Of a stretch of DNA of 13,597 nucleotides, positions 2,228-13,503 are shown one piece after another; the stretch's first letter is position 1; every line of letters starts with the position of its first letter. The position numbers and the translations under genes were made by a program. The DNA comes from Candidatus Methylomirabilota bacterium (lineage in GTDB: Bacteria > Methylomirabilota > Methylomirabilia > Rokubacteriales > CSP1-6). The notes beneath the pieces were generated by a model, which saw nothing but the letters and a program-made list of their open reading frames with translations, was not told where the DNA came from and did not search any database. Location of the stretch: contig JBKPAK010000027.1 in assembly GCA_046726415.1 (NCBI GenBank), forward strand, positions 1 to 13,597, written 5' to 3'.

Positions 2228-3904
2228 GTGTTTGTCTGGTCTCATGCGCACCCGAGAATCCTGGGAGCCGCCGCCGTTCACGATGCAACGTTGAAGCCGC
2301 GAGACGAGTCCGTGCGGGAGTCACTGCCGTTCCATCCGATTTACCCACGCGCTCGGTGGCCCGTCGCCGGCGCCACGATCATCGCGCTCAGCTACGCAGT
2401 TCCCGTCCTTGCGTACGTCGGCGCCATGGTCGACGGATACCAGCGGACCTTCGGAGGCAAGGATGCAAGCCCGCTGCGGCTCGACACGGGGGAGCTCGTG
2501 CACGGCGTGATCCTGTCATTGGGCTTGCTTGCCCTGATCGCGCTGTCGCCGCGAGTCTTCAAGTTCGGAGCCGCGCTGCGGCAGCGGAACGCGATCGACC
2601 TGGTCGAGGGCGACGGCCGGCCGCCGGTCCTGTATCTGCGTTCGTTCGGCGATGACGCGGCGCCCGATTACACGGGATCGGCGTTACCGGTGGGCGCCAG
2701 GCAGACCGTCGAGATGCGGTTGGCCCACGCGCTCGAGAGTGTCGGCGTGGTGATCTCGATCGGCCGCCCGGGCGAACGCCTCCCCGAGCTCGGGGCGAAT
2801 CGCTTCTATGTTTCGGATGCCGAGTGGCAGCGTGCCGTGCGTCACTTCCTCGCCGGATCGGCGGCCGTCGTCATCGTCGTCGGTCGCTCGACCGGTCTCA
2901 CGTGGGAGATCAGGACGGCGCTCGACGAGGTTCCTCACCGGCGGCTGCTGTTCGTCTTCCCCTACCTGTTACCGGGCGAGAAGCGAACGTGGAAGCAGGA
3001 GTCATGGCAATGGCTGCGATCGACGCGGAAGGGTTCCGGCGATGCGCTGGGAGCGCGGCTCCTGAGCGAGCTCCGAGCCGAGCGACAGGCGCGCTACGAC
3101 GCCTTTCGGGCGAATTTCGGTCACGCGTTCTCTACCCCGCTGCCGTCGGAGCTTGGCTCGAGCATAGTCCTGGACTACCTCGACCATGGGTCGCCGCGGC
3201 TCATTCCGACTCGACAACCCCTCTTCGTCCGCCGCAAGCGCGACCGGCAAGGCGTCACGCTCGACTACGCCCGCACGCTGCGCCCGTTCGTCGAAAAGCT
3301 GCAGAACCGCATGATCTCGCCGGATCGCCTCGAACGGATCCTGACCTCGCCACGCGGGCTCCGCCTCGTGACCGTGCTCTCCGGACTGTTCGCGGTGGCC
3401 GGATTCTGCTCGCCGTTGTTCCTCGGGTTCAGCCCGCTTTCGCTCGTGCTCTTCTTCCTCATGAGCGTTCCGGCCTCGTTGGCCTACTGGGGCGCCTGGA
3501 CGCTGCTTCGCGAGACCCCGGAGCATGCACGTGCTCACGCGGCTCGATTCGAACCGGCGGCCGACTCTTTGGTCGTGAACGCCCACGTCACCTATGCACT
3601 GTCGGCACTCGCTCTCCTGTTCGCCGTGCCGGGCGTCGTGGCGCTCGCCATGGCCTATCGGCAGCGCGGGAAGGTGCAGGGAACGCTTCTCGAGCCGCAC
3701 GTCCAATGGCAGATACGTACCCTGTGGGCCGCCCTCGGCTGGTTGGTCACGGCCATCGTGCTCGCCGCCACGGTCTTCCTGGCTCCCCTGGCACTGATCC
3801 TGGCGTTCGTCACGTACCTGTGGGTCACTTACCGCATCGTTCGCGGCTGGCGGGCGCTCGCCCGCCGCCAGCCCGTCGTCCCGTCTCGCTCGTTTCTCGA
3901 GTGA
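2228..3904 (+). CDS. Multi-pass membrane protein with a soluble TIR-like/flavodoxin-fold domain and a C-terminal DUF4870-like membrane domain
   Basis: 558-aa ORF with two N-terminal hydrophobic helices, then PPVLYLRSFGDD...IGRPGE.LP.LGA...WQ...VVIVVGRSTGLTWEI, two more TM helices, and a tail with AY..R...H..WQIRT.W...W..YRIVRGW..L. The start codon is uncertain. Confidence 0.75.
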   Translation: MFVWSHAHPRILGAAAVHDATLKPRDESVRESLPFHPIYPRARWPVAGATIIALSYAVPVLAYVGAMVDGYQRTFGGKDASPLRLDTGELVHGVILSLGLLALIALSPRVFKFGAALRQRNAIDLVEGDGRPPVLYLRSFGDDAAPDYTGSALPVGARQTVEMRLAHALESVGVVISIGRPGERLPELGANRFYVSDAEWQRAVRHFLAGSAAVVIVVGRSTGLTWEIRTALDEVPHRRLLFVFPYLLPGEKRTWKQESWQWLRSTRKGSGDALGARLLSELRAERQARYDAFRANFGHAFSTPLPSELGSSIVLDYLDHGSPRLIPTRQPLFVRRKRDRQGVTLDYARTLRPFVEKLQNRMISPDRLERILTSPRGLRLVTVLSGLFAVAGFCSPLFLGFSPLSLVLFFLMSVPASLAYWGAWTLLRETPEHARAHAARFEPAADSLVVNAHVTYALSALALLFAVPGVVALAMAYRQRGKVQGTLLEPHVQWQIRTLWAALGWLVTAIVLAATVFLAPLALILAFVTYLWVTYRIVRGWRALARRQPVVPSRSFLE

Positions 3905-4104
3905 GCGGCTCAAGTTCTCGTTCCCATCTCTGGGTGACATCGTCGCAGACCTGGAACCCGAACCGCTGATAGAACCCGGCGATGCCGGTGCCATCGGTCA
4001 ATGTCACCGACACGTAGCGGGACCGTTGCAGGTGCACCAGCCCCCCGCGCATACACTGCGTGGCGATACCGTGACGGCCGTAGGCCGGGTGCGTGATGAC
4101 GTCT
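3825..4104 (-). pseudogene. C-terminal fragment of a GNAT acetyltransferase
   Basis: Minus frame reads DVITHPAYGRHGIATQCM (acetyl-CoA motif A) and GFYQRFGF (motif B). The upstream in-frame sequence is not GNAT-like, so the N-terminal half is missing. Confidence 0.75.
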
Positions 4105-4228
4105 GTGCCTACGGCTCCAGCGGGCTCCGGCGTGCCGGGCTGGGGCTGACGCAGGGGGACAGGAGACCTGCGGTGGGGGAGCGGCGGCGGAGGGCGTTGA
4201 TGTCGACTTCTATGAAAGCGGCTGGCCG

Positions 4229-4234
4229 TGTCAA
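4229..4234 (-). promoter_or_regulatory. Outward-facing -35 box (TTGACA) at the IS110 right end, likely half of a circle-junction promoter
   Basis: Plus-strand TGTCAA = TTGACA on minus, with an A-tract upstream (plus TTTTTT 4245-4250). In the excised circle it lies 16 nt before TAGATG, a weak -10. Confidence 0.55.
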
Positions 4235-4299
4235 GTCGCCAGCGTTTTTTCCCGTGTGTGTGTGTCGTCGTCTGGCTGTGGCATGCAGTCCTGGACCGT

Positions 4300-4560
4300 G
4301 ACGAGGCACGCTCGAGTCTCGCGAGGTTCATCAGCCTTCTATTCGCGCTCGTCAGAAGGCGAGGCCTGAGGCCGCGCCGGCGCATGAGGGGATTCGAAGG
4401 GTGGGAGCGCCATCTATCCAGCGGCTCTGCGACGGCAGCCAAGTCGACACTCGCGCTCACCCACCCGTCGAACCTGCGAGAGACCGAGGCGGTCACGGTC
4501 ATGGACATCGTGGGGGTGGTCACCGCGTGATGGGTCGGTCGGGTTCGATTCTCGGATCGT
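4300..4560 (-). ncRNA. Putative bridge RNA (seekRNA) in the IS110 3' non-coding end; boundaries approximate
   Basis: Stem 4393-4410/4453-4472 and inner hairpin 4423-4440 enclose an internal loop. Its strands read GAGUGUCGACUU and GCUGGAUAGAUG in the RNA and match the flank TGTCGACTT and the core TCTAT. Confidence 0.75.
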
Positions 4561-4603
4561 GCGTTCTTCAGTTAACCGAGAAATCCTTGTCCTGGACTTC
4601 TGG

Positions 4604-5668
4604 TCATCTCTCATAGGCGGCCCGTGCGTGGAGTGCCCCGTCCGCCCCGAGGACACCGACGGCGTGGCGGGACTGAAACACGCTGCCGTCACGCAGGAGC
4701 GCATAGAGGATGCCCGCCAGGCGGCGGGCGAGGGCGACGACGGCGACGTGCTTGCCGCGGCGGGCGGCGATGCGCAGGGCCCAGGTCCGCAGCGCCTCGG
4801 CCTCGGGTGGCCGGCGGCGGAGAATCGAGACCGCGGCTTGGATGAGCAGCCAGCGCGCGCGGCCGGGGCCCGCTTTGGTGATGGGCCCCCGGCGCTGATG
4901 CTCGCCGGAGCTGAACTCGCCCGGCACCAAGCCGAGGTAGGCTTCGACCTGATGGGCGCGGCGGAAGCGCCGGGCATCGTCGAGAGTGGCCACGAAGGCG
5001 GCGGCGGTGACGGGCCCGATGCTCGGGACGGTGCGGAGGCGCCGGACGCGCGCATCCTGGGCGGCGAGGTGTTCGATCACGTCATCGGAATACGCGAGTT
5101 GCCGGTTGAGGGGCAGCATGACGGCGAGCAGCGGGCCGATGAGCGAGCGGACGGGGCCCGGCAGGGCCATGGCGTCGACGCGGTGGAGGAAGGCCTGCGC
5201 ACTGCCCGAGGGCACGCGATAGCCGTGCTGGCGGAGCAGGGCGCGGATGAGCGAGATGTACCGGGTGCGGGTGCGGACGAGGGCGTCACGGACCCCCAGC
5301 CGGCCGCGCACGTGGCGCGGGGCATCGGAGAGCCGATGGGCCGGGCGGTAGGCCCCGAGCACGCAGGCGTCCATCAGCGCGCGGGCATCACGCCGATCCG
5401 TCTTGACCTTCCGCGTTCGCGTCGCGTACATCGGGGCGAAGTTCGGATCCGCGACGATGACCTCATGTCCCAACCCCTCGAGGCAGCGGGCCACCCATTC
5501 ACTGTCCGTCGAGGCCTCGATCAGGATCCGCGCGCGGGGCCGTCCGCCGAGCACGGCCGCGAAGCGCTCCGGTTCCGTCCGGATCCGCTGCTCGACCAGT
5601 TCACCCGCCTCCGCCAGAAGACAAATCTGGCTTTCCTTCTTGCGCACGTCGATGCCAATATGGTCCAC
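4604..5668 (-). CDS. IS110-family DEDD recombinase/transposase (354 aa)
   Basis: GTG at 5668 with an AGGAG RBS upstream. Motifs GIDV, IEAS and KTDRRDA (DEDD), TVPSIGPVTA, and YLGLVPGEFSSG (catalytic Ser), AVVALARRLA. The frame is intact. Confidence 0.95.
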   Translation of the reverse strand: MDHIGIDVRKKESQICLLAEAGELVEQRIRTEPERFAAVLGGRPRARILIEASTDSEWVARCLEGLGHEVIVADPNFAPMYATRTRKVKTDRRDARALMDACVLGAYRPAHRLSDAPRHVRGRLGVRDALVRTRTRYISLIRALLRQHGYRVPSGSAQAFLHRVDAMALPGPVRSLIGPLLAVMLPLNRQLAYSDDVIEHLAAQDARVRRLRTVPSIGPVTAAAFVATLDDARRFRRAHQVEAYLGLVPGEFSSGEHQRRGPITKAGPGRARWLLIQAAVSILRRRPPEAEALRTWALRIAARRGKHVAVVALARRLAGILYALLRDGSVFQSRHAVGVLGADGALHARAAYER

Positions 5669-5837
5669 GGCTGGTCTCTCCTCTCTGCGGCCTTGACCGC
5701 GTGTATCCCTTGTGGGGCAGCTTAGGCCACCACGTCGAGCGGGAGGCCAGCCGCTTTCATCACATCTATTCTCGCCGACCCGACCCCCGCCGACTGACCG
5801 CACACCGCTGCCTGGCACCCCGGCCCCGTCAACGGCA

Positions 5838-6215
5838 GGTCGTGCACCCAGATCGTGCGGCCGCTCGTCGCGTCGATGGCCGCCACCTGGCTCGCCGAGG
5901 TGCTGACGTACAGCACGCCGCTGATCATGATCGGCGTCGCCTGGTTCGCCCACGTCCGGATGTCCGGCTGCCGGGCAATCAGCGCGCGGTCGGGGGACGG
6001 CCACCGCCACGCGATCCGAAGCCGGCTCACGTTGTCGCGGTGGATCTGGTCGAGGGACGAGTAGCGCCGGTTGGCGTTCGTGCCGCCGTACGTCGGCCAC
6101 TCCCGCGCGGGGGAACCGCTCGCTCGGCCGGCCCGACCGGGCTGCAGCCCGCCGCGCCGATCGCGATGAGCGCCGCGAGCGGCAGGGCGGCGGACCACGT
6201 GGACCGGAGGTTCAT
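5838..6215 (-). pseudogene. N-terminal fragment of a PQQ-dependent (glucose/quinate-type) dehydrogenase lipoprotein
   Basis: Signal peptide with lipobox-like AAGC from ATG6215, a frameshift at about 6100-6140, then EWPTYGG...RYSSLDQIHRDNVSRLRIAWRW...QATPIMISGVLYVST...AIDATSGRTIWVHD. Similarity ends at about 5838. Confidence 0.85.
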
Positions 6216-6344: not shown

Positions 6345-7958
6345 CTATTGCGGAGAGACGCAGTGGAAGTTCGCCGCCTGCGTGGTGCTGCCCGCCGGGT
6401 TGATCTGCCGCGCCACCTGCGGGTACGCGCACAGCGGTCGCTCGATGTCGACCACACCGCCGGTGCGGTGCACGGCGGTGATGGCGCCCGGGGCGATGCC
6501 GTGTTCCACCCACTGCTCGAGGGGGGTGAGCATGTCGAACTCGTTCGGCCCCGGGCCGCCGCTGCAGTGCAACATGCCGGGGGCCAGATACAGCCGCATG
6601 AACGAGTCGGTGCGATCCTGGCCGAGGGCCGCCGCCACCTCCTCGAAGTAGTCGATCGATCCGAGCGCGGTGATGGCGTGATCGCTCCAGCCGTTGTAGA
6701 CGATCAGCTTGCCCCCGCGGCGCTCGAAGCGGTCGAGGTTCGGATCCGTGGCATTCAGGATGCCGCCGATGAAGTCGAGCGTGGGCGGCCCGGTCTCGAA
6801 GTCGAAGTCGTGGATGTCGAAGCTGCCGTCGTCCTGGTTCGGGTAGGCGAGGTACTTGAAGAAATCGCCGCTGAAGGCGTAGTGCAGGTTCGGATAGGCG
6901 CCGGACTGGTTGGCGGCGCCGACGATCCAGGTGTTCCAGCCGCCCGGCTGGCTCTCCCCACCGACCGGGAATCCGGGGAAGATCTGTCCGTGCGAATTCG
7001 ACGGGCCGGCATAGACCGCCTTCACGGCATCGAGCTGTGCCGTCGTCAGGCACCGCGCGTTGGCCTCGTCGCCGGAAGCGCATCGGGCCAGGTGGGTGTC
7101 GGGGTTGAAGGTGCACACCCGCGGGTCGTCGATGATGCCGTCGGCGATGCCATCGACGGCGTCGCAGTTGGCGAGGACCTGCTGCTCGATGTACGGCAGC
7201 TTCGCGAGCGGCAGCACGGAGGCGGTGAGGTTGCCACGCCCCGGATAGAACCCGACCTCGTTCCACGCGAAGCCGATCATGAACCACGACCAGTTGTAGG
7301 CCGGGGCGCCGGCGATGATGCCGTCGAAGTCCTTGGGGTAGCGTTGCGCCTCCATCAAGGCCTGGCCGCCGCCCCGCGAGCAGCCCTGGAAGTACGAATA
7401 CCGGGGCTTCTTGCCGTAGAAGTCCTGCACGAGCTCCTTGCCGGCGACGGCCGTCTCGTGCACGGCGCGGTAACCGAAGTCGATCACCTTCGTCGGATTG
7501 TCCTGGGCCCAGCTCGCATCGATCGCGCTGCCCTGATGGCCCGTGTCCGTGCGCGCCGTGGCGTAGCCGCGGCCGAGCGGGACGGAGAGGTTGCCCTGGA
7601 ACGAGCCGGCGAAGCCGCCGTTGCCGCCCATGTAGAACTTGCCGTTCCAGCTCTCCGGCAGCCTCACCTCGATGTTGACGTGGTTGAAGCCCTCCCGCTT
7701 GTCGCCCGTGGTCACGTGGCCCAGCACCAGGCAGTGCGCGGGCAGCGTCGTCGACGCCGGCGTCCACGTCGCCGACATGAGCGTGGCCTTCCCGACCCGG
7801 TCTTTCCTCTGCGTGTCATTGGCGATCTCCGCGGCAAGCGTCGCGCACTCCTCCTGGGCCACTCTGTCCTTCGCGAGCGCGTCGACGGGCGCGGCCGCGC
7901 AGAACGCTGCCAAGGTCACCCCGAGTACCAACCTGCTCAGCGAATCGAACGGCTTCAT
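6345..7958 (-). CDS. Secreted tannase/feruloyl esterase family alpha/beta hydrolase (537 aa)
   Basis: ATG7958 with a GAGGAGG RBS and a signal peptide. Motifs RLPESWNGKF..GNGGFAG, TDTGH, YFQGCSRGG (nucleophile Ser), FDGIIAGAP, GWSD, PGMLHC, RPLCAYP. Confidence 0.95.
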   Translation of the reverse strand: MKPFDSLSRLVLGVTLAAFCAAAPVDALAKDRVAQEECATLAAEIANDTQRKDRVGKATLMSATWTPASTTLPAHCLVLGHVTTGDKREGFNHVNIEVRLPESWNGKFYMGGNGGFAGSFQGNLSVPLGRGYATARTDTGHQGSAIDASWAQDNPTKVIDFGYRAVHETAVAGKELVQDFYGKKPRYSYFQGCSRGGGQALMEAQRYPKDFDGIIAGAPAYNWSWFMIGFAWNEVGFYPGRGNLTASVLPLAKLPYIEQQVLANCDAVDGIADGIIDDPRVCTFNPDTHLARCASGDEANARCLTTAQLDAVKAVYAGPSNSHGQIFPGFPVGGESQPGGWNTWIVGAANQSGAYPNLHYAFSGDFFKYLAYPNQDDGSFDIHDFDFETGPPTLDFIGGILNATDPNLDRFERRGGKLIVYNGWSDHAITALGSIDYFEEVAAALGQDRTDSFMRLYLAPGMLHCSGGPGPNEFDMLTPLEQWVEHGIAPGAITAVHRTGGVVDIERPLCAYPQVARQINPAGSTTQAANFHCVSPQ

Positions 7959-8206
7959 GGGTGCGTCCTCCTCGCGGGGGGAGCGCCACGCGCGCCGAGC
8001 GTGCGACTGCCGAGGTGCGCGGGCACGCTTCCGACCGGGCCTGCGCTCGAACGCCGCCGCGGGCCATGCACCCGCGGCGCGGCCATGCCGCATCCCAGGT
8101 AGGCCCCCATTGGTCACCCGGGGCCGAGCGCCGCACGGCGCCGGGCTCTCGCCCGGCCCCCGGGGCCGATCGTGGCTCTCGCTCAGGGCCGAGTCAAGGA
8201 CACACC

Positions 8207-9531
8207 TGTGCCGGTCAGAAACCTCAGCAGCGCCAAGTGGGCGGACGTCGGGAGCGCGAAACGGGGCTCGGCCGGCCAGGGAGCAAGACCGGGGGGCCAC
8301 GACGGGAACGACGTTGCCCCAGAAGGCCGGGTCTTGGACCTGCGAGATCAGCGGGGCAGTGGCCCCGAGCCAGCCGTCGTTGGCTCGGGGCGTCTGGTGT
8401 CAGGCGGCGCGCTGGTACCGGTGATGGAGTCCGCCGAGATGCGGAATCGCCACGATCCGACCGAGAAAAGGGGGCTCGCTATCCCGTGGGTGTGGGCTGT
8501 TCTGGTCCAGCGCTTGATGTGGGCGCGAGGCGTTGTAGTAGACGCGGTAGGCCCGCAGGAGCCGGTGGAGGTGCCGCTCGTTCAGGACGAGGAAGTGGTT
8601 GAGGCACTCTCTTCGGATTGAGCCGATGACCCGCTCGGCGAAGGGATTTTGCCAGGGCGCGCGTGGGGCGATGAGCACCTCACGAATCCCCATCCGCTCG
8701 ACTCGCCGTGCGAACTCAGCGCCATAGATTCGATCGCGATCACGGAGCAAGTAGGTAGGAGCCGCATCGTCTGGGAATGCCTCGACGATCTGCCGCGCAG
8801 TCCAGGCTGCCGTTGGATGGTCCGTGACGTTGATATGGATGAGTTCACGGCGGTGATGGCGCAGGACGACGAACACGAAGAGCAGACGGAAGGTGAGGGT
8901 GGGCACGAGGAAGAAGTCGATAGCCACGATGTCCTGGGCGCGAGTGGCGAGAAAGGTGCGCCACGTAGGTGACGGCCGCGGCGAGGTCCGGTGCATGTAC
9001 TTGGCGACGGTCAGTTCGGCGACGTGGTAGCCGAGGAGCGCGAGTTCAGCTTGGATGCGCCGTCGGCCCCAGGTGGGATTCTCCCGAGCCATGCGTCGGA
9101 TCAGGTCGCGAATCTCGGCGCCGAGCCTTCGGCGGCCGACCGGGTCGTCCGGGACTTCCACCGCCAGTAGAGCTGGAAGCCCTGGCGATGCCAGGCAAGG
9201 ACCGTGGCGGGTTGGACAATGAGGAGGCTGGATCGCCAGCCCGCCCAGCACCGAGCCAGCCAAACCCAGAAGATCCGATCCCAGCGCGACAGGCGGGGTC
9301 GGCGAACGGAGCGTTGGAGGACGGCAAGTTGATGGCGCAGAGCCACGTTCTCGAGGGCGATGGCCGTCGACCCGAGGAGCAACGCACGGAGGAGCGTCGA
9401 GAGAGCGAATAGTGGGATCATGGTGGCCCCCGGCCCAGAGGTCGCGTCGGTGTCTCGACTCTACGCGGTAGAGAGGGGGGTGTGGCGTAAGTTCAAGCGA
9501 GGTGGGCCGAACGGAGTTTTTGACCAGGACA
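8207..9531 (-). mobile_element. IS element with integrase-core (rve, DDE) transposase and TGT...ACA ends (IS481/IS3-like), copy A
   Basis: Ends TGTGCCGGTCAGAAACCTC (8207-8225) and the reverse complement of 9513-9531, TGTCCTGGTCAAAAACTCC, form imperfect IRs. No target duplication is visible. Confidence 0.85.
8400..9421 (-). pseudogene. Integrase-core transposase with a frameshift near 9148
   Basis: N-part ALENVALRHQL...YWRWKSR (from ATG9421) and C-part MARENPTWG...AIDFF...LLRDRD...PWQNPFAERVIGSIRRECL...GGLHHRY lie in different frames. Alignment with copy B shows one missing base. Confidence 0.88.
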
Positions 9532-9739
9532 GCGGTGTGGGTCTTGCCCACGTTGACCGCCGCGATCCGTAGCAGCGCGGTGGCGCGATTCGAGGATCGG
9601 CGAGTCTTCGAGCTGAGCAGCCGGCCGCCGGAAATCTTGTTCCCCGGAGCCAAGGTCAGCCAGGATGTGAAGTGCTTCGCCGTCGGCCACTTCCTCATGT
9701 CGTCGCCGCACTCGGCGACGAGCCGCAGCACGGTGTAGG
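9532..9739 (-). pseudogene. Internal fragment of a second, different IS110 transposase (C-terminal domain)
   Basis: TVLRLVAECGDDMRKWPTAKHFTSWLTLAPGNKISGGRLLSSKTRRSSNRATALLRIAA. It is cut on both sides exactly at neighbouring IS ends. Confidence 0.85.
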
Positions 9740-10800
9740 TGTACCGCACCCGGTTTCCTGGACACCAGGGTGTGAGTGATGAGACGCATTGGAATCGCGA
9801 TTGGAGGGGGTATCGAGATAGCGGCCCCCACTGAGATCGTCGAGCCTGAGCCAAATGCGGCCCTCGATTTTCAGTCCGTGACCGGCAACCAGCCTCATGC
9901 CGCCCTCCGCTGCGCGTCGGCCCGTGCCTGCGCCGGGGTCCGATACCCAAGGCGCTCGATGATCCACTCGGCGTTGTACCGCGCCATGAACTCTCCGATG
10001 ATCCGCGGGGCCTCCGTCAGGCTCGGGAACCGGTGGAGGTAGATACACTGCTCTTTCAGTGTGCGAATGAACCGCTCCATGACCCCGTTGCATTCGGGCT
10101 CCCCCACATACGAGGGGCTGATCGTGATGCCCAGCCACTTCACCTCGTTGATCCACGCATCGGCGATGTACTGGGGCCCCCAGTCACAGCGCACGGCGAG
10201 GCCCCGGGCCACGTCCTTGCCGAAAGCCCCGAAGGCGTGCCGCACCCCCTGCCGAAGCGGCTCGAGGGCCGCCCAGCGATCGCCGAGCTTCGCCACGTGC
10301 CAGCCGACGAGCTCATCGAGATGATGGTCGATCGCTCCGAAAAACCAGCACCACCCGTCTGCCTCCGTGTAGAACCGGGTCGCATCCGTCCCCCACATCT
10401 CGGCCGGCCGCGTAGTGGTGATCGTCCCGTCGTGCGCCGGATTCCCATTCGGCGCCCCGAGCTGGCGGGGAGCCAAGAGGTGGTGGGCCCGCATCAGCCG
10501 GAGCACGTCTTTCCTCCGACGGCGAGTCCCCGATGGGCCAGGCGCGCCCGCACCTTGCGATAGCCCTCCCCGTGAAACGGGGTCGCGGCCAACACCGCGC
10601 GAATGCCCTCGACGATCGCCGCGTCGCTCGTGCCGGTCTTCGGCCCTCGCTTGCCCGGCCCGGGCGCAGCGGCGGGCCGCGGCGTCGCGGCCGCATAGAC
10701 GCTGGAGCGGGGGACCCGGAAGACCGTGCAGATCATCGTGAGCGGAGACGACCATCGCCGTCCCCGCGGGTGCGAAGCCACCCTTCTGGCGCCGCGCGCT
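9740..10800 (-). mobile_element. IS3-family element remnant (right end plus orfB; left part deleted)
   Basis: Terminal sequence TGTACCGCACCCGGTTTCCTGGACACC from 9740. No matching second IR is present. The sequence merges into an unrelated gene at about 10790-10802. Confidence 0.75.
9895..10750 (-). pseudogene. IS3-family OrfB-type DDE transposase, frameshift near 10510
   Basis: PLTMICTVFRVPRSSVY...GEGYRKVRARL, then in another frame VLRLMRAHHLL...WGTDAT...RCDWGPQY...PECNGVMERFIRTLKEQ...YNAEWIIERLGYRTP. Confidence 0.85.
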
Positions 10801-11457
10801 CGCCTGGTACGTCGACCAGATGAAGCACCTGCTGCCGCCGACGATCTTCTTCTTCATCGGCTTCAATTTGATCCTCTGGACGAAGCAGATGATCCTGCAG
10901 GAGCACAACATCGAGTTCAGCGGCTTCCTCGTGGCCACCATGGCCGCCCTGCTCGTCGCCAAGGCCGTGCTGGTCATGGACCACATGCCGTTCATGCGGC
11001 GCTTCGACGGCGCGCCGCTCTTGCAGCCGATCCTCTTCAAGGCGGCGATCTACTGGGCCTGCGTGTTCCTGGTACGGATCGGCGAGGGGCTGCTGCACTT
11101 CCTCCACGAGGGGGGCGCGCTGGTCGACTTCCCGCAGCACCTGGTCGACCGTTTTTCGTGGCCACGCTTCCTCACCATCCAGGTCTGGTTGATGGTGCTA
11201 TTCCTCATCTATGTCACCATTAACGAGCTCAACGGGCTGTTTGGCGACGGCGAGCTGTACCACCTCTTCTTCCGCTGGCGCTCCCGCAGGCGAAGCTGAC
11301 GCGCCGCCAGCGCATTCGGTTGCTGACCCGGCTTAGTCGCCTGACCGAGGCGAACGCCCTCGAGGCGTTCAGTGACCCCCGCACTGCGGCGCACGCCGAA
11401 ATGGTCGAGATCGTCCGCGCGCTCGCGGCGCCGCCGGCTGCGGTGACTGGTCGCTGA
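10793..11457 (+). CDS. Uncharacterised four-TM membrane protein, probably 5'-truncated, with an apparent 1-bp deletion near 11285
   Basis: ORF 10820-11299 (LPPTIFFFIGFNLI..., AKAVLV.DH.PF.RRFDGAPL) extends upstream as RALAWYVDQ. A protein-like tail QAKLTRRQRIRLLTRLSRLTEANALEAFSDPRTAAHAEMVEIVRALA continues in the -1 frame to TGA 11455-11457. Confidence 0.7.
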
Positions 11458-11571
11458 CCAGCGCGCACGTCGCGGGGCAGCCCGACCTGGCGCCCCGCTC
11501 GGAGACGTGTGGGTGGAACCACGGCTCCGAAGAAACGCTGAGCCGCCGGTCCGAGGCCGTCGCGCGAACGG

Positions 11572-11640
11572 CTACAGGAACCGGCGGCGACCGGTGTTGC
11601 CAGCGATCGGCTCCGGGGGCGTCGAGGCGACTGGCTCCAT
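11572..11640 (-). pseudogene. Truncated start of a probable Tat-exported protein
   Basis: GAGGAGG RBS, ATG11640, MEPVASTPPEPIAGNTGRRRFL then TAG. A twin-arginine motif with no hydrophobic region after it. Confidence 0.45.
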
Positions 11641-11865
11641 GGACACCTCCTCGCGACAGTGAATACAGACCAACGGACTTCATGCCAGCCTCGAACGATT
11701 GTCAACCGAATTCTCCGGTCGACGCGGTGCCCGAAACTGCACGGCGGCGTACTCTCGCAGGGCCGGTCGCGTCACGGGCTCCTCCCTCGACTCAGAGTGG
11801 GTAACCGTGGCTTCCGATCTACGACCTCGGTCTCGGTAACCGAAATTTTGATGTGATGCGCGCCC

Positions 11866-11894
11866 TTGACCGGTGATCCGGCGGACGCTAAGCT
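11866..11894 (+). promoter_or_regulatory. Sigma70-type promoter for the gene at 11927
   Basis: TTGACC (11866-11871), 17-bp spacer, TAAGCT (11889-11894), then a GAGGG RBS and ATG11927. Confidence 0.65.
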
Positions 11895-11926
11895 CGCTGC
11901 ACTTCATCGAGACGCGAGGGATCGCC

Positions 11927-12169
11927 ATGCGCACGACCGCGAGGACGATGGCTGCGTTCCTGGGGTTCGTCGTCACCTGGGGCGTCGCCGGGCCGGCCGT
12001 CGCCGGGACCATCAAGGGCACCATCCGATTGGCGGGCGGCGCCGTCGAGGTCAAGAAGCTCAAGGTGACGGTGGATCACGGGGTGTGCGGGACGGTCAAG
12101 GATGCCGAAGACCTCGTCGTCTCCGCCGACATGGGCATCCGCAACGCCGTGGTCTCCCTGCTGACCCCT
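11927..12169 (+). pseudogene. N-terminal fragment of a secreted beta-sandwich protein (carboxypeptidase-regulatory-like/cupredoxin-associated), cut by an IS
   Basis: Signal peptide ending AVA, then GTIKGTIRLAG...VTVDHGVCG...EDLVVSADMGIRNAVVSL. It is interrupted exactly at the TGT end at 12170, and no continuation is seen after 13503. Confidence 0.7.
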
Positions 12170-13503
12170 TGTGCCGGTCAGAAACCTCATCGGCCAGCCG
12201 TTGAGAATGCCTGACACTTGGCGCGAACGTCTGGAACCACATCCACGTCGTATTGAGTGTGATCAGGATTGTCGCGTTGATGGCCGCCGAGGACTGGAGT
12301 GCAGATTACCCATGCCAGTCAGGGTGGATCGCACGAGCGGGCGACGGCTGGCCCGCCGGCCGACCACGATCAGGCGACGCGAGTGTAGCGGTGATGGAGT
12401 CCGCCTGCCTGAGGGATGGCGATGATCCGGCCACGTGGCGAGGGTTCGACGACTCGTGGCTGGGGACTGTGTCAAGCGATTGGTGTGGCCGCGTGGTGTT
12501 GTAGTAGGCGAGATACGCGCGCAAGACGCGGCAGAGATGGGCCCCGCTCAGAATGATGACGTGGTCGAGGCATTCGCGACGGATTGAGCCGATCACCCGT
12601 TCCGCGAAGGGGTTCTGCCAGGGCGCTCTGGGGGCCGTGATCACCTGGCGGATCCCCATGTGGTCGACGCGCCGAGTGAAGGCCTCGCCGTAGATCGAGT
12701 CTCGATCCCGAAGTAGGAATTTCGGGCCGGTCTCCTCCGGGAACGCTTCGATCACCTGCCGGGCCGTCCAGGCTGCGGACGGGTGATCCGTCACGTTGAC
12801 GTGGAGAAGTTCGCGGCGGTGATGCCGCAAGACGACGAAAACGAACAGCAGGTGGAAGGTGATCGTGGGGACAACGAAGAAGTCGATGGCGACGATGTCT
12901 CGGGCATGCGCGGCGAGAAAGGCGCGCCACGTGGGCGACGGCCGAGGCGACGTCCGGCGCATGTACTTGGCGACCGTCAGCTCGGCGACCTCGTAGCCGA
13001 GAAGGGCCAGCTCCGCCCGAATGCGCCGGCGGCCCCACGTCGGATTCTCCCGCGCCATGCGTCGGATCAGGTCGCGAAGCTCCGCGTCGAGTCTCGGGCG
13101 GCCGACCGGGTTGGGCCTGGACTTCCAGCGCCAGTAGAGCCGGAAGCCTTTGCGGTGCCAGGCCAGTACTGTGGCCGGTTGCACGATGACGAGACTGGAC
13201 CGCCAGCTCGCCCACAGGCCTGACAGCCAGACCCAGAAGATCCGGTCCCCCTGAGACAGACGTGGTCGGCCGGCCGACCGCTGAAGGACGAGGAGTTGAT
13301 GGCGGAGCGCCATGTTCTCAAGGGCGATCGCCGCTGACCCAAAGAACACGGCGTGAAGGAAGGTTCCTAAACCCGTCACGAGAACCATCGCGGCCCCCCC
13401 CCGGCATCCGGCATGGCGTCTTGGTCGAGACCTACCGGATCAGCGGTGGAGACGGTAAAGAAAGTTCAGGTAGGACGAGCAGATGGGGTTATTGACCGGG
13501 ACA
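12170..13503 (-). mobile_element. IS element with integrase-core transposase and TGT...ACA ends, copy B
   Basis: TGTGCCGGTCAGAAACCTCA (12170-12189) is identical to 8207-8226. The other end, reverse complement of 13485-13503, is TGTCCCGGTCAATAACCCC. No target duplication. Confidence 0.87.
12370..13388 (-). CDS. Integrase-core (rve, DDE) transposase, frameshifted near its 3' end (about 12470)
   Basis: ATG13388, ALENMALRHQL, AIDFF, LLRDRD, PWQNPFAERVIGSIRRECLDH. The family tail SPQPRVVEPSPRGRIIAIPQAGGLHHRYTRVA* lies in the shifted frame and ends at 12370. Confidence 0.88.

Follow-up and report, generated by a model that had tools for sequence, protein, structure and literature searches.

The window, by which we mean the whole stretch of 13,597 nucleotides that was analysed, is contig C27 of a 7.6-Mb soil-metagenome genome (67.5% G+C) and carries one complete IS110-family element on its minus strand. 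The insertion sequence (IS) occupies 4209..5765 (-), representing 1557 bp plus one copy of a 2-nt core. On the transposase strand, the left end was placed at 5765 and the right end at 4209, based on the subterminal repeats, the alignment of ends among paralogues and homologues, and uninterrupted targets; metagenome contigs break at 4210 and 5771, which weakly supports these ends. The transposase (recombinase) gene was predicted at 4604..5668 (-), with a GTG start at 5668 and a product of 354 aa. The domains PF01548 (E 1.3e-12) and PF02371 (E 2.6e-24) were both found above their cut-offs, and the protein matches the solved transposases of ISCro4 (E 2e-13) and IS621 (E 4e-13). Residues D7, E51, D91 and D94 align to the IGIDV, EA and KTDxxDA motifs of a DEDD (RuvC-like) N-terminal domain, and S254 (S254-G255), within GLVPGEFSSG, aligns to the ESG serine, as read against the ISCro4 transposase 9t56 and the IS621 protein. 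The same stretch fits the motif GL-P----S(t)G that is quoted for IS1111 transposases (PMC11187229).

The ends were compared with those of the IS1111 group, in which the inverted repeats are subterminal, 7-17 bp long and a few bases from the ends. The left repeat (5745..5760) lies 5 nt inside the left end and the right repeat (4212..4227) 3 nt inside the right end; the two are 16 nt long and 100% complementary. The non-coding ends measure 97 nt on the left (5765-5669) and 395 nt on the right (4603-4209), and the longer one is 3' of the transposase gene, as in the IS1111 group. Insertion was site- and orientation-specific, without duplication beyond the core: AG alone is common to the occupied junctions and the uninterrupted sites described below. 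The element thus has the features of the IS1111 group that can be tested on sequence. Its transposase, counted from the predicted GTG start, is 4 aa above the 330-350 aa given for that group (PMC11187229).

The flanks and neighbours of the element were also annotated. At 5776-6198 (-) lies the N-terminal part (~140 codons) of a PQQ-dependent dehydrogenase, which covers PF01011 positions 1-86 of 595 and is cut exactly at the left IS junction. The continuation of this gene was not on the far side of the element, where the right flank holds a repeat related to the second target family (see below) and then a fragment of a GNAT acetyltransferase. The two flanks are not obviously halves of one former site, and they need not be halves of one gene. 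Further along, a 651-aa protein of the tannase/feruloyl esterase family (PF07519, E 3e-118) is encoded at 6345-8300 (-), beside a cluster of IS genes. This cluster, at 8400-13388 (-), consists of three consecutive IS3-family integrase-core frames (rve/rve_3, HTH_21), and within the long frame 8400-9950 a stretch of 60 aa belongs to PF02371 and represents part of another IS110-family transposase (~9554-9731). The stretch 8400-13388 is an IS-rich and probably rearranged region.

Signals of expression and movement were searched for across the element. Metatranscriptome contigs from one run include relatives (90-95%) over the transposase gene and none over 4367-4447, which has no bearing on expression either way. 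Among the short Logan contigs over 3800-6200, no contig bridged the flanks (an empty site) or a circle junction. The scan of 4150-5850 predicted neither a sigma-70 promoter for the RNA described below, nor a complete promoter in the integrated state, nor a minus-strand terminator. A -35-like hexamer, TTGACA, was read at 4229..4234 (-), 16-18 nt from the right end, and is kept in the paralogues; it could possibly be half of a promoter that is completed at the junction of the circular form.

The target-loop hairpin and its RNA

The earlier note on this DNA had proposed a bridge-RNA hairpin on the transposase strand, with an outer stem, an inner hairpin and a two-sided loop, and this structure was recovered. 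The putative target-binding hairpin lies at 4393..4472 (-) and consists of an outer stem (4472-4453/4410-4393), an internal loop and an inner hairpin (4440-4423). An inverted repeat of 18 nt within the outer stem (4472-4455/4410-4393) is 83% complementary, and the ViennaRNA fold of 4480-4385(-) gave the outer stem, the inner hairpin and the two-sided internal loop with an MFE of -43.4 kcal/mol (z = -2.16; 2 of 200 shuffles were equally stable). For the whole 406-nt non-coding region as folded, z was -1.29.

Both sides of the loop can be read against the flanks. The 5' loop strand, GUGUCGACUU (4441..4450 (-)), pairs with transposase-strand DNA 4209-4200 through nine Watson-Crick pairs and one G.T pair, spanning the final right-end nucleotide, the AG core and then 7 nt of the right flank. 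The identity of the loop 9-mer at 4449-4441(-) with + strand 4201-4209, already pointed out in the earlier note, is exact; the 9-mer occurs twice in the window versus 0.07 expected, a count reached in 2 of 200 shuffles. The 3' loop strand, GGAUAG-AUG (4411..4419 (-)), has the sense of 5771-5763, which is left flank, core and the first 3 nt of the left end (eight identical positions and one G.T). Because it shares the sense of the left target half and core, it would pair with the opposite DNA strand, and GGAUAGA (4419-4413, minus) was indeed complementary, with one G.T pair, to the TCTATTC with which it had been matched before (+ strand 5765-5771). Since the window copy folds only slightly better than its shuffles, the evidence has to come from other copies.

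Seven more such RNAs were found in the same genome, 67-82% identical where alignable. In the alignment of seven copies (the window and six others) the stems are kept with compensatory changes and the two loop strands differ. A covariance model, R1, was built from seven same-genome copies and applied to the window and 79 homologous loci, which had been retrieved by their transposase with one genome per species and come from the best 80 of 144 relatives among 532 candidate stretches. The nearest transposase homologues among the matches kept came from Candidatus Rokubacteria (75-84% aa identity). In the window, R1 scored 142 bits at 4312..4485 (-), its sole match there, and Rfam at gathering thresholds gave 0 matches in the window. 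Among the 80 sources there were 73 R1 matches, and the RNA lay directly 3' of the transposase in 70 of the 79 loci, which again come from the best 80 of 144; nine of the 79 were without an R1 match, and some of these stop at or shortly past the gene (e.g. L055, L059).

The conserved region, ~170 nt long, contains the target-loop hairpin, a second helix domain and a single-stranded 3' segment, and has the layout of a bridge RNA or long seekRNA. The second helix domain (GCGCC..hairpin..GAGCGC, 4345..4383 (-)) comprises helices 4-6, in which 7 of 12 pairs showed compensatory change. In alignment A2, 92.6% of pair cells were paired and 18 of the 27 helix pairs had compensatory, both-side change (0 of 500 shuffles as high), figures to be read with the fact that A2 was fitted to R1, which somewhat favours the structure, and that the loci are phylogenetically related. 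Slid controls reached 31-51% pairing versus 92.6%.

Two of the same-genome copies, at C255:6310-6481(-) and C230:20107-20276(+), consist of the bridge RNA and the right IS end, and no transposase or left end was present within 1.5 kb upstream. They were considered as stand-alone (orphan) seekRNA genes, a reading that was rejected: their appearance is that of IS copies truncated on the 5' side in which the guide RNA is still complete. The guides of the C255 remnant match four uninterrupted sites elsewhere in the genome.

Guides, flanks and the recombination core

Covariation of the loop with the flanks across homologues had been set beforehand as a test of the bridge-RNA reading. The IS ends were located by the subterminal repeat motif and 10 nt were taken for each loop strand. 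Both ends and both guides were obtained for 53 of the 73 matches; the remaining 20 were excluded, for an end beyond the contig, a missing repeat motif or an unaligned loop. Each pair was scored at the best of 7 offsets, with the same rule for cognate and control pairs; a fixed offset undercounts registers that are shifted by one. On the right side the 5' strand matched its own flank with a mean of 8.02/10 Watson-Crick pairs, at 9 or more in 26 and at 8 or more in 39 of these 53 loci from the best 80 of 144. Non-cognate pairs gave a mean of 5.03/10, and 0.04% of 2458 such pairs (guides differing by 4 or more) scored 9 or more. On the left side the 3' strand scored 8.43/10 against its own left flank and 5.14 against non-cognate flanks. 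With one representative per guide class (35 right, 33 left), none of 10,000 permutations reached the observed mean on either side.

The register of the 5' strand is constant in the homologues, with a modal offset of 3 in 24 of the 39 loci that reach 8/10 or more, and lineages with wholly different guides (L028, L033, L051, L056, L068, L082 and L086) each match their own flanks. The remaining 14 of the 53 loci scored below 8/10 on the right side; in some the sequence directly past the end differs (L023, L024), and others have several mismatches. The loop 9-mer varied with the targets across the 53 loci, and since it is not constant where the targets differ, the bridge-RNA reading stands. The central proposal of the earlier note, a bipartite target loop of IS110/IS1111 type that can be read against both flanks, is therefore upheld by cognate scores of ~8/10 versus ~5/10 for non-cognate pairs at the 53 loci.

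These comparisons also bear on another explanation, in which the hairpin is a mere structure of the mRNA 3' end, serving as a terminator, as a stabiliser or for protein binding, and its matches to the flanks arose by chance, aided by the palindrome GTCGAC. That hexamer is self-complementary, so that 6 of the 9 matches would be obtained with either strand, and the z-score of the window copy's fold is modest. Against this, the hairpin has no U-tract, the loop strands are the variable part of a conserved RNA and track the flanks in 35 and 33 guide classes, and non-palindromic guides behave alike (e.g. L028, L033, L056, L068 and L086). We consider this explanation very hard to credit.

The core was then located within the bridge-RNA reading. 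The dinucleotide at the right junction (4207..4208) and that at the left junction (5766..5767) are both AG on the transposase strand and CT on the + strand, and both were placed by the uninterrupted targets and by covariation of the core. The register of the core was defined as 5 nt before the ATG of the left repeat and after the 4-nt right-end extension. Among 54 loci (from the best 80 of 144), 31 had one and the same core dinucleotide in all four places (left junction, 3' guide, right junction and donor segment), the uniform cores being AG in 25, GA in four and AA in two. The other 23 of the 54 were not uniform, and eleven of them differ only by AA at the right junction. In four loci (L061, L063, L068 and L069) the left junction reads GA, the right junction GC and the donor segment GT (GG in L063), with only the first core base in common, which suggests a one-base shared core or a tolerated core mismatch in this lineage.

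A side observation concerns the right junctions of L066, L073, L074, L079, L083, L052, L053, L072, L076, L044 and L051. These eleven loci carry one extra A before the core (..CAGA-A-AG..), relative to L058 and to the donor segment of their own RNA, and 9 of the 11 come from Gemmatimonadota-type genomes. The extra A may be a slipped junction or a right end that is one base longer.

Uninterrupted targets were found in the same genome. The sequence ..GGAT-AG-TCGACAT.., which fits the guides of the window element, occurs uninterrupted on C232 (once), C252 (once) and C326 (two sites). These four unoccupied sites belong to a single repeat family and are exact over 12 nt. The 12-mer that the window guides dictate has 6 occurrences in the genome versus 0.41 expected. 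A second family, ..GAGAGCGT-AG-GCAACAT.. (C270, C303 and twice on C345), fits the guides of the C255 paralogue. In the uninterrupted targets the left and right halves are joined by a single AG, with no AGA between them, and the occupied sites have the same halves, each beside one AG.

The junctions and targets indicate a recombination core of 2 nt, which reads AG on the transposase strand and CT on the + strand, and the "unusually long 5-bp shared core" put forward in the earlier note is not supported: single AGs join the halves of the uninterrupted targets, and a dinucleotide at a fixed register covaries over the 54 loci. The empty site reconstructed there, TGTCGACT-TCTAT-TCTCG, is likewise unsupported, the expected string being absent from the genome except at the occupied site and the halves being joined by one AG. 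The empty site that these sequences fit best consists, on the + strand, of 4200-4206, CT and 5768-5776, which is 3 nt shorter.

The rival in question keeps the same bridge-RNA loop and takes the core as 5 bp (ATAGA on the transposase strand), so that the empty site retains the 5-mer and the 3' strand also reads the donor junction. The element is indeed flanked by direct repeats of 5 nt that read TCTAT on the + strand (4209-4213 and 5765-5769), AUAGAUG would match the circle junction at 7/7, and close relatives share TAGA, even CATAGA (L028), at both junctions. Opposed to this are the same-genome targets without AGA between their halves; the 13-mer of the 5-bp-core empty site, which the genome holds at the occupied junction only; and the donor-like segment, which reads the right end plus 2 nt. 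In addition, the right-end extension CA(T/C)AGA is kept even where the left flank is unlike it: L056, L068 and L086 retain it beside left flanks that do not end in TAGA, and the shared bases are the dinucleotide after the extension. Because the extension is kept regardless of the left flank, the 5-nt repeat can be explained as the extension meeting a target ..AT-AG, after which comes a left end whose first base is A. The longer core is improbable in our judgement. The match of AUAGAUG to the donor junction, which had also been claimed, holds only with that longer core; with the 2-nt core it corresponds to target half, core and 3 nt of left end, and on this sequence reading it is the integrated left junction that is read.

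The positions of the sites were examined in relation to repeats. At C232:17238, C252:1732, C326:22978 and C326:30117, the sites that match the guides at 12/12 are the first bases of a repeated sequence, and their left neighbours are unique. The repeat has at least four copies, with similarity extending ~115-140 nt from the site, and is tandem on C232. Since the guide-matching sites are all at the start of the repeat beside unique left neighbours, the IS appears to aim at the end of another repeat.

A further claim of the earlier note, that of an intact set of recombinase, guide, target and donor, agrees with the aligned catalytic residues, the recovered IS ends, the covarying RNA and the unoccupied matching sites. 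A loop that once guided the IS could nevertheless belong to a fossil, the window copy being no longer mobile and the intact set nominal. In this direction point the single copy at 100% identity in the assembly (the next is 82%), a left-end extension of ATGTG versus ATGGG in most relatives, a left flank one base off the guide, flanks that resemble different genes, and other same-genome copies that are frameshifted or truncated. In the other direction, the open reading frame is full-length with all catalytic residues aligned, the extra A of the subterminal repeat is present in both arms with pairing still at 16/16, the guides match four unoccupied sites at 12/12, and the RNA score equals that of the best homologues. 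We regard loss of mobility as unlikely, with a real chance all the same.

Donor-reading bases and a proposed mechanism

Past the second helix, the single-stranded segment AUAGAAG (4336..4342 (-)) corresponds to the last 5 nt of the right IS end and the core AG, and is donor-guide-like. It was compared with right-end DNA on the alignment columns of 64 loci (from the best 80 of 144), and was identical in 62/64, 63/64 and 61/64 loci at the variable positions, with T/C, G/C/A and A/G covariation. In the target loop, AUG (4413-4411) equals the three bases with which the left IS end begins; the equivalent triplet was identical in 32 of 59 homologous loci (from the best 80 of 144), and the ATG and TTG lineages each match their own left end there. 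When the linker before the second helix was compared by eye across the homologues, no donor guide for the left end was found. The linker sequence ..AAUCCCCUCAU.. was tried as such a guide and set aside, as it fits L056 but not the changes in L022, L024, L033, L045 and L054.

Observed directly were the anatomy of the element, its conservation, RNA segments that covary with the flanks, the ends and the core, and cognate sites that are unoccupied. With these observations we conclude, with high confidence, that 4485-4312(-) is the bridge RNA (seekRNA) of an intact IS1111-group IS and that the internal loop of 4472-4393 is its target-binding loop, with a 2-nt core AG. By analogy with ISEc11, ISPa11, ISKpn4 and ISPst6 (PMC11187229) and with IS621, the RNA would be made, bound by the protein and used to guide recombination.

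In the mechanism that we propose, the 5' loop strand (4450-4441) would base-pair with the transposase strand of the right target half and the core AG, and the 3' loop strand (4419-4414) would pair, with one G.T, with the opposite strand of the left target half and core, so that both guides overlap on the core as in IS621. AUG (4413-4411) and U4441, which corresponds to the last base of the right end, would act like the handshake guides of IS621. As these bases match the IS ends, the loop fits the integrated junctions better than the empty target. The single-stranded 4342-4336, which reads the right IS end and core, would serve as one donor guide. The DEDD/Ser recombinase and the RNA would then unite the circular IS with a GGAT-AG-TCGACA site, with strand exchange at AG.

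A more far-reaching reading is offered tentatively, and the chances seem somewhat against it. The target loop of this lineage may be built for integrated junctions, with guides that extend into the IS ends (the left guide by 3 nt, the right guide by 1 nt) and a donor-like segment that reaches into the ancestral right flank, in which case one loop could license both excision and insertion. The family would then be a natural record of reprogrammed guides (at least 35 classes) and of a reprogrammed core (AG, GA, AA and AT, in step, at up to four places). If true, the family would provide a ready-made rule set for engineering IS1111-type recombinases.

Comparison with known systems

The RNA-guided mechanism of transposition was first described in 2024, and the window element is a clear but ordinary example of it, which leaves the general picture of how IS110/IS1111 elements work unchanged. 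It is a clean natural example outside the usual proteobacterial models, in which one soil genome holds an intact element, decayed copies with other guides, and unoccupied sites that match guides exactly. The ~70 homologous loci (from the best 80 of 144) give rules, position by position, for the loop bases that read target, core and IS ends, and for changes of the core. This comparative set appears worth keeping for its natural guide classes (at least 35), cores reprogrammed in step, handshake-like extensions and unoccupied cognate sites. IS1111 elements are far less studied than IS621, and the position rules could help in the design of tests.

In the search for structures, ISCro4 and IS621 transposases were the matches, and no solved IS1111 complex was found. 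Apart from the two papers of 2024 and a review of 2026 (PMC13604230), we found no structural or covariation study specific to donor recognition in IS1111 elements; other IS1111 members may already be shown with this layout in the supplementary seekRNA folds of these sources and in Extended Data Fig. 10 of Durrant et al.

Insertion in a fixed orientation and at a single position of a repeated sequence, as seen here, is shared with IS4321/IS5075 and with the REP-targeting members of IS110/IS1111 (PMC11187229, PMC11208160). The target repeat of the window element was assigned to no family and was not identified as a transposon end or a REP.

Comparison with IS621 (Durrant et al. 2024, PMC11208160; Hiraizumi et al. 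2024, PMC11208158) shows further shared features. In IS621 both guides include the core (PMC11208160), and a handshake guide pairs with core-adjacent donor bases after strand exchange (PMC11208158). The window RNA likewise has internal-loop guides for opposite strands with a 2-nt core in both, bases next to the core that match the partner DNA, and a separate donor guide that equals IS end plus core. Read on the + strand, the arrangement is that of IS621: the core is CT, the 5' strand equals the left target and core (7+2 nt), and the 3' strand pairs with the core and right target (2+4 nt). On that reading the transposase gene and RNA of the window point the opposite way, which is the published reversal of match order between IS110 and IS1111 types (PMC11187229). 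Unlike in IS621, the window RNA lies in the right end and would be transcribed outward from the element, the element has long subterminal repeats, and inspection of the linker gave no left-end guide. The donor-reading bases also lie in a single-stranded segment of a multi-loop and not in a second internal loop; bridge RNAs in the right end with donor nucleotides in the multi-loop are described for IS1111 elements by Durrant et al., who note this for many of them (PMC11208160).

The closest counterparts are the seekRNAs of ISEc11, ISPa11, ISKpn4 and ISPst6 (Siddiquee et al. 2024, PMC11187229). IS1111 seekRNAs are reported to come from the downstream non-coding region, to co-purify with the transposase, to carry the top-strand match 5' of the bottom-strand match, and to occur in short (82-96 nt) and long (148-172 nt) forms (PMC11187229; PMC13604230). 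The window element differs from these four in its host lineage (soil MAGs), its target and guide sequences and its transposase of 354 aa, and it is known from sequence alone. It resembles them in an RNA downstream of the gene for the transposase, in its subterminal inverted repeats, and in a stem around a two-sided loop with the top-strand-complementary segment 5' and matches that overlap in the target. The RNA of ~170 nt and its ~80-nt hairpin may be compared with the long and short forms, and in both cases the relatives are naturally reprogrammed (PMC11187229).
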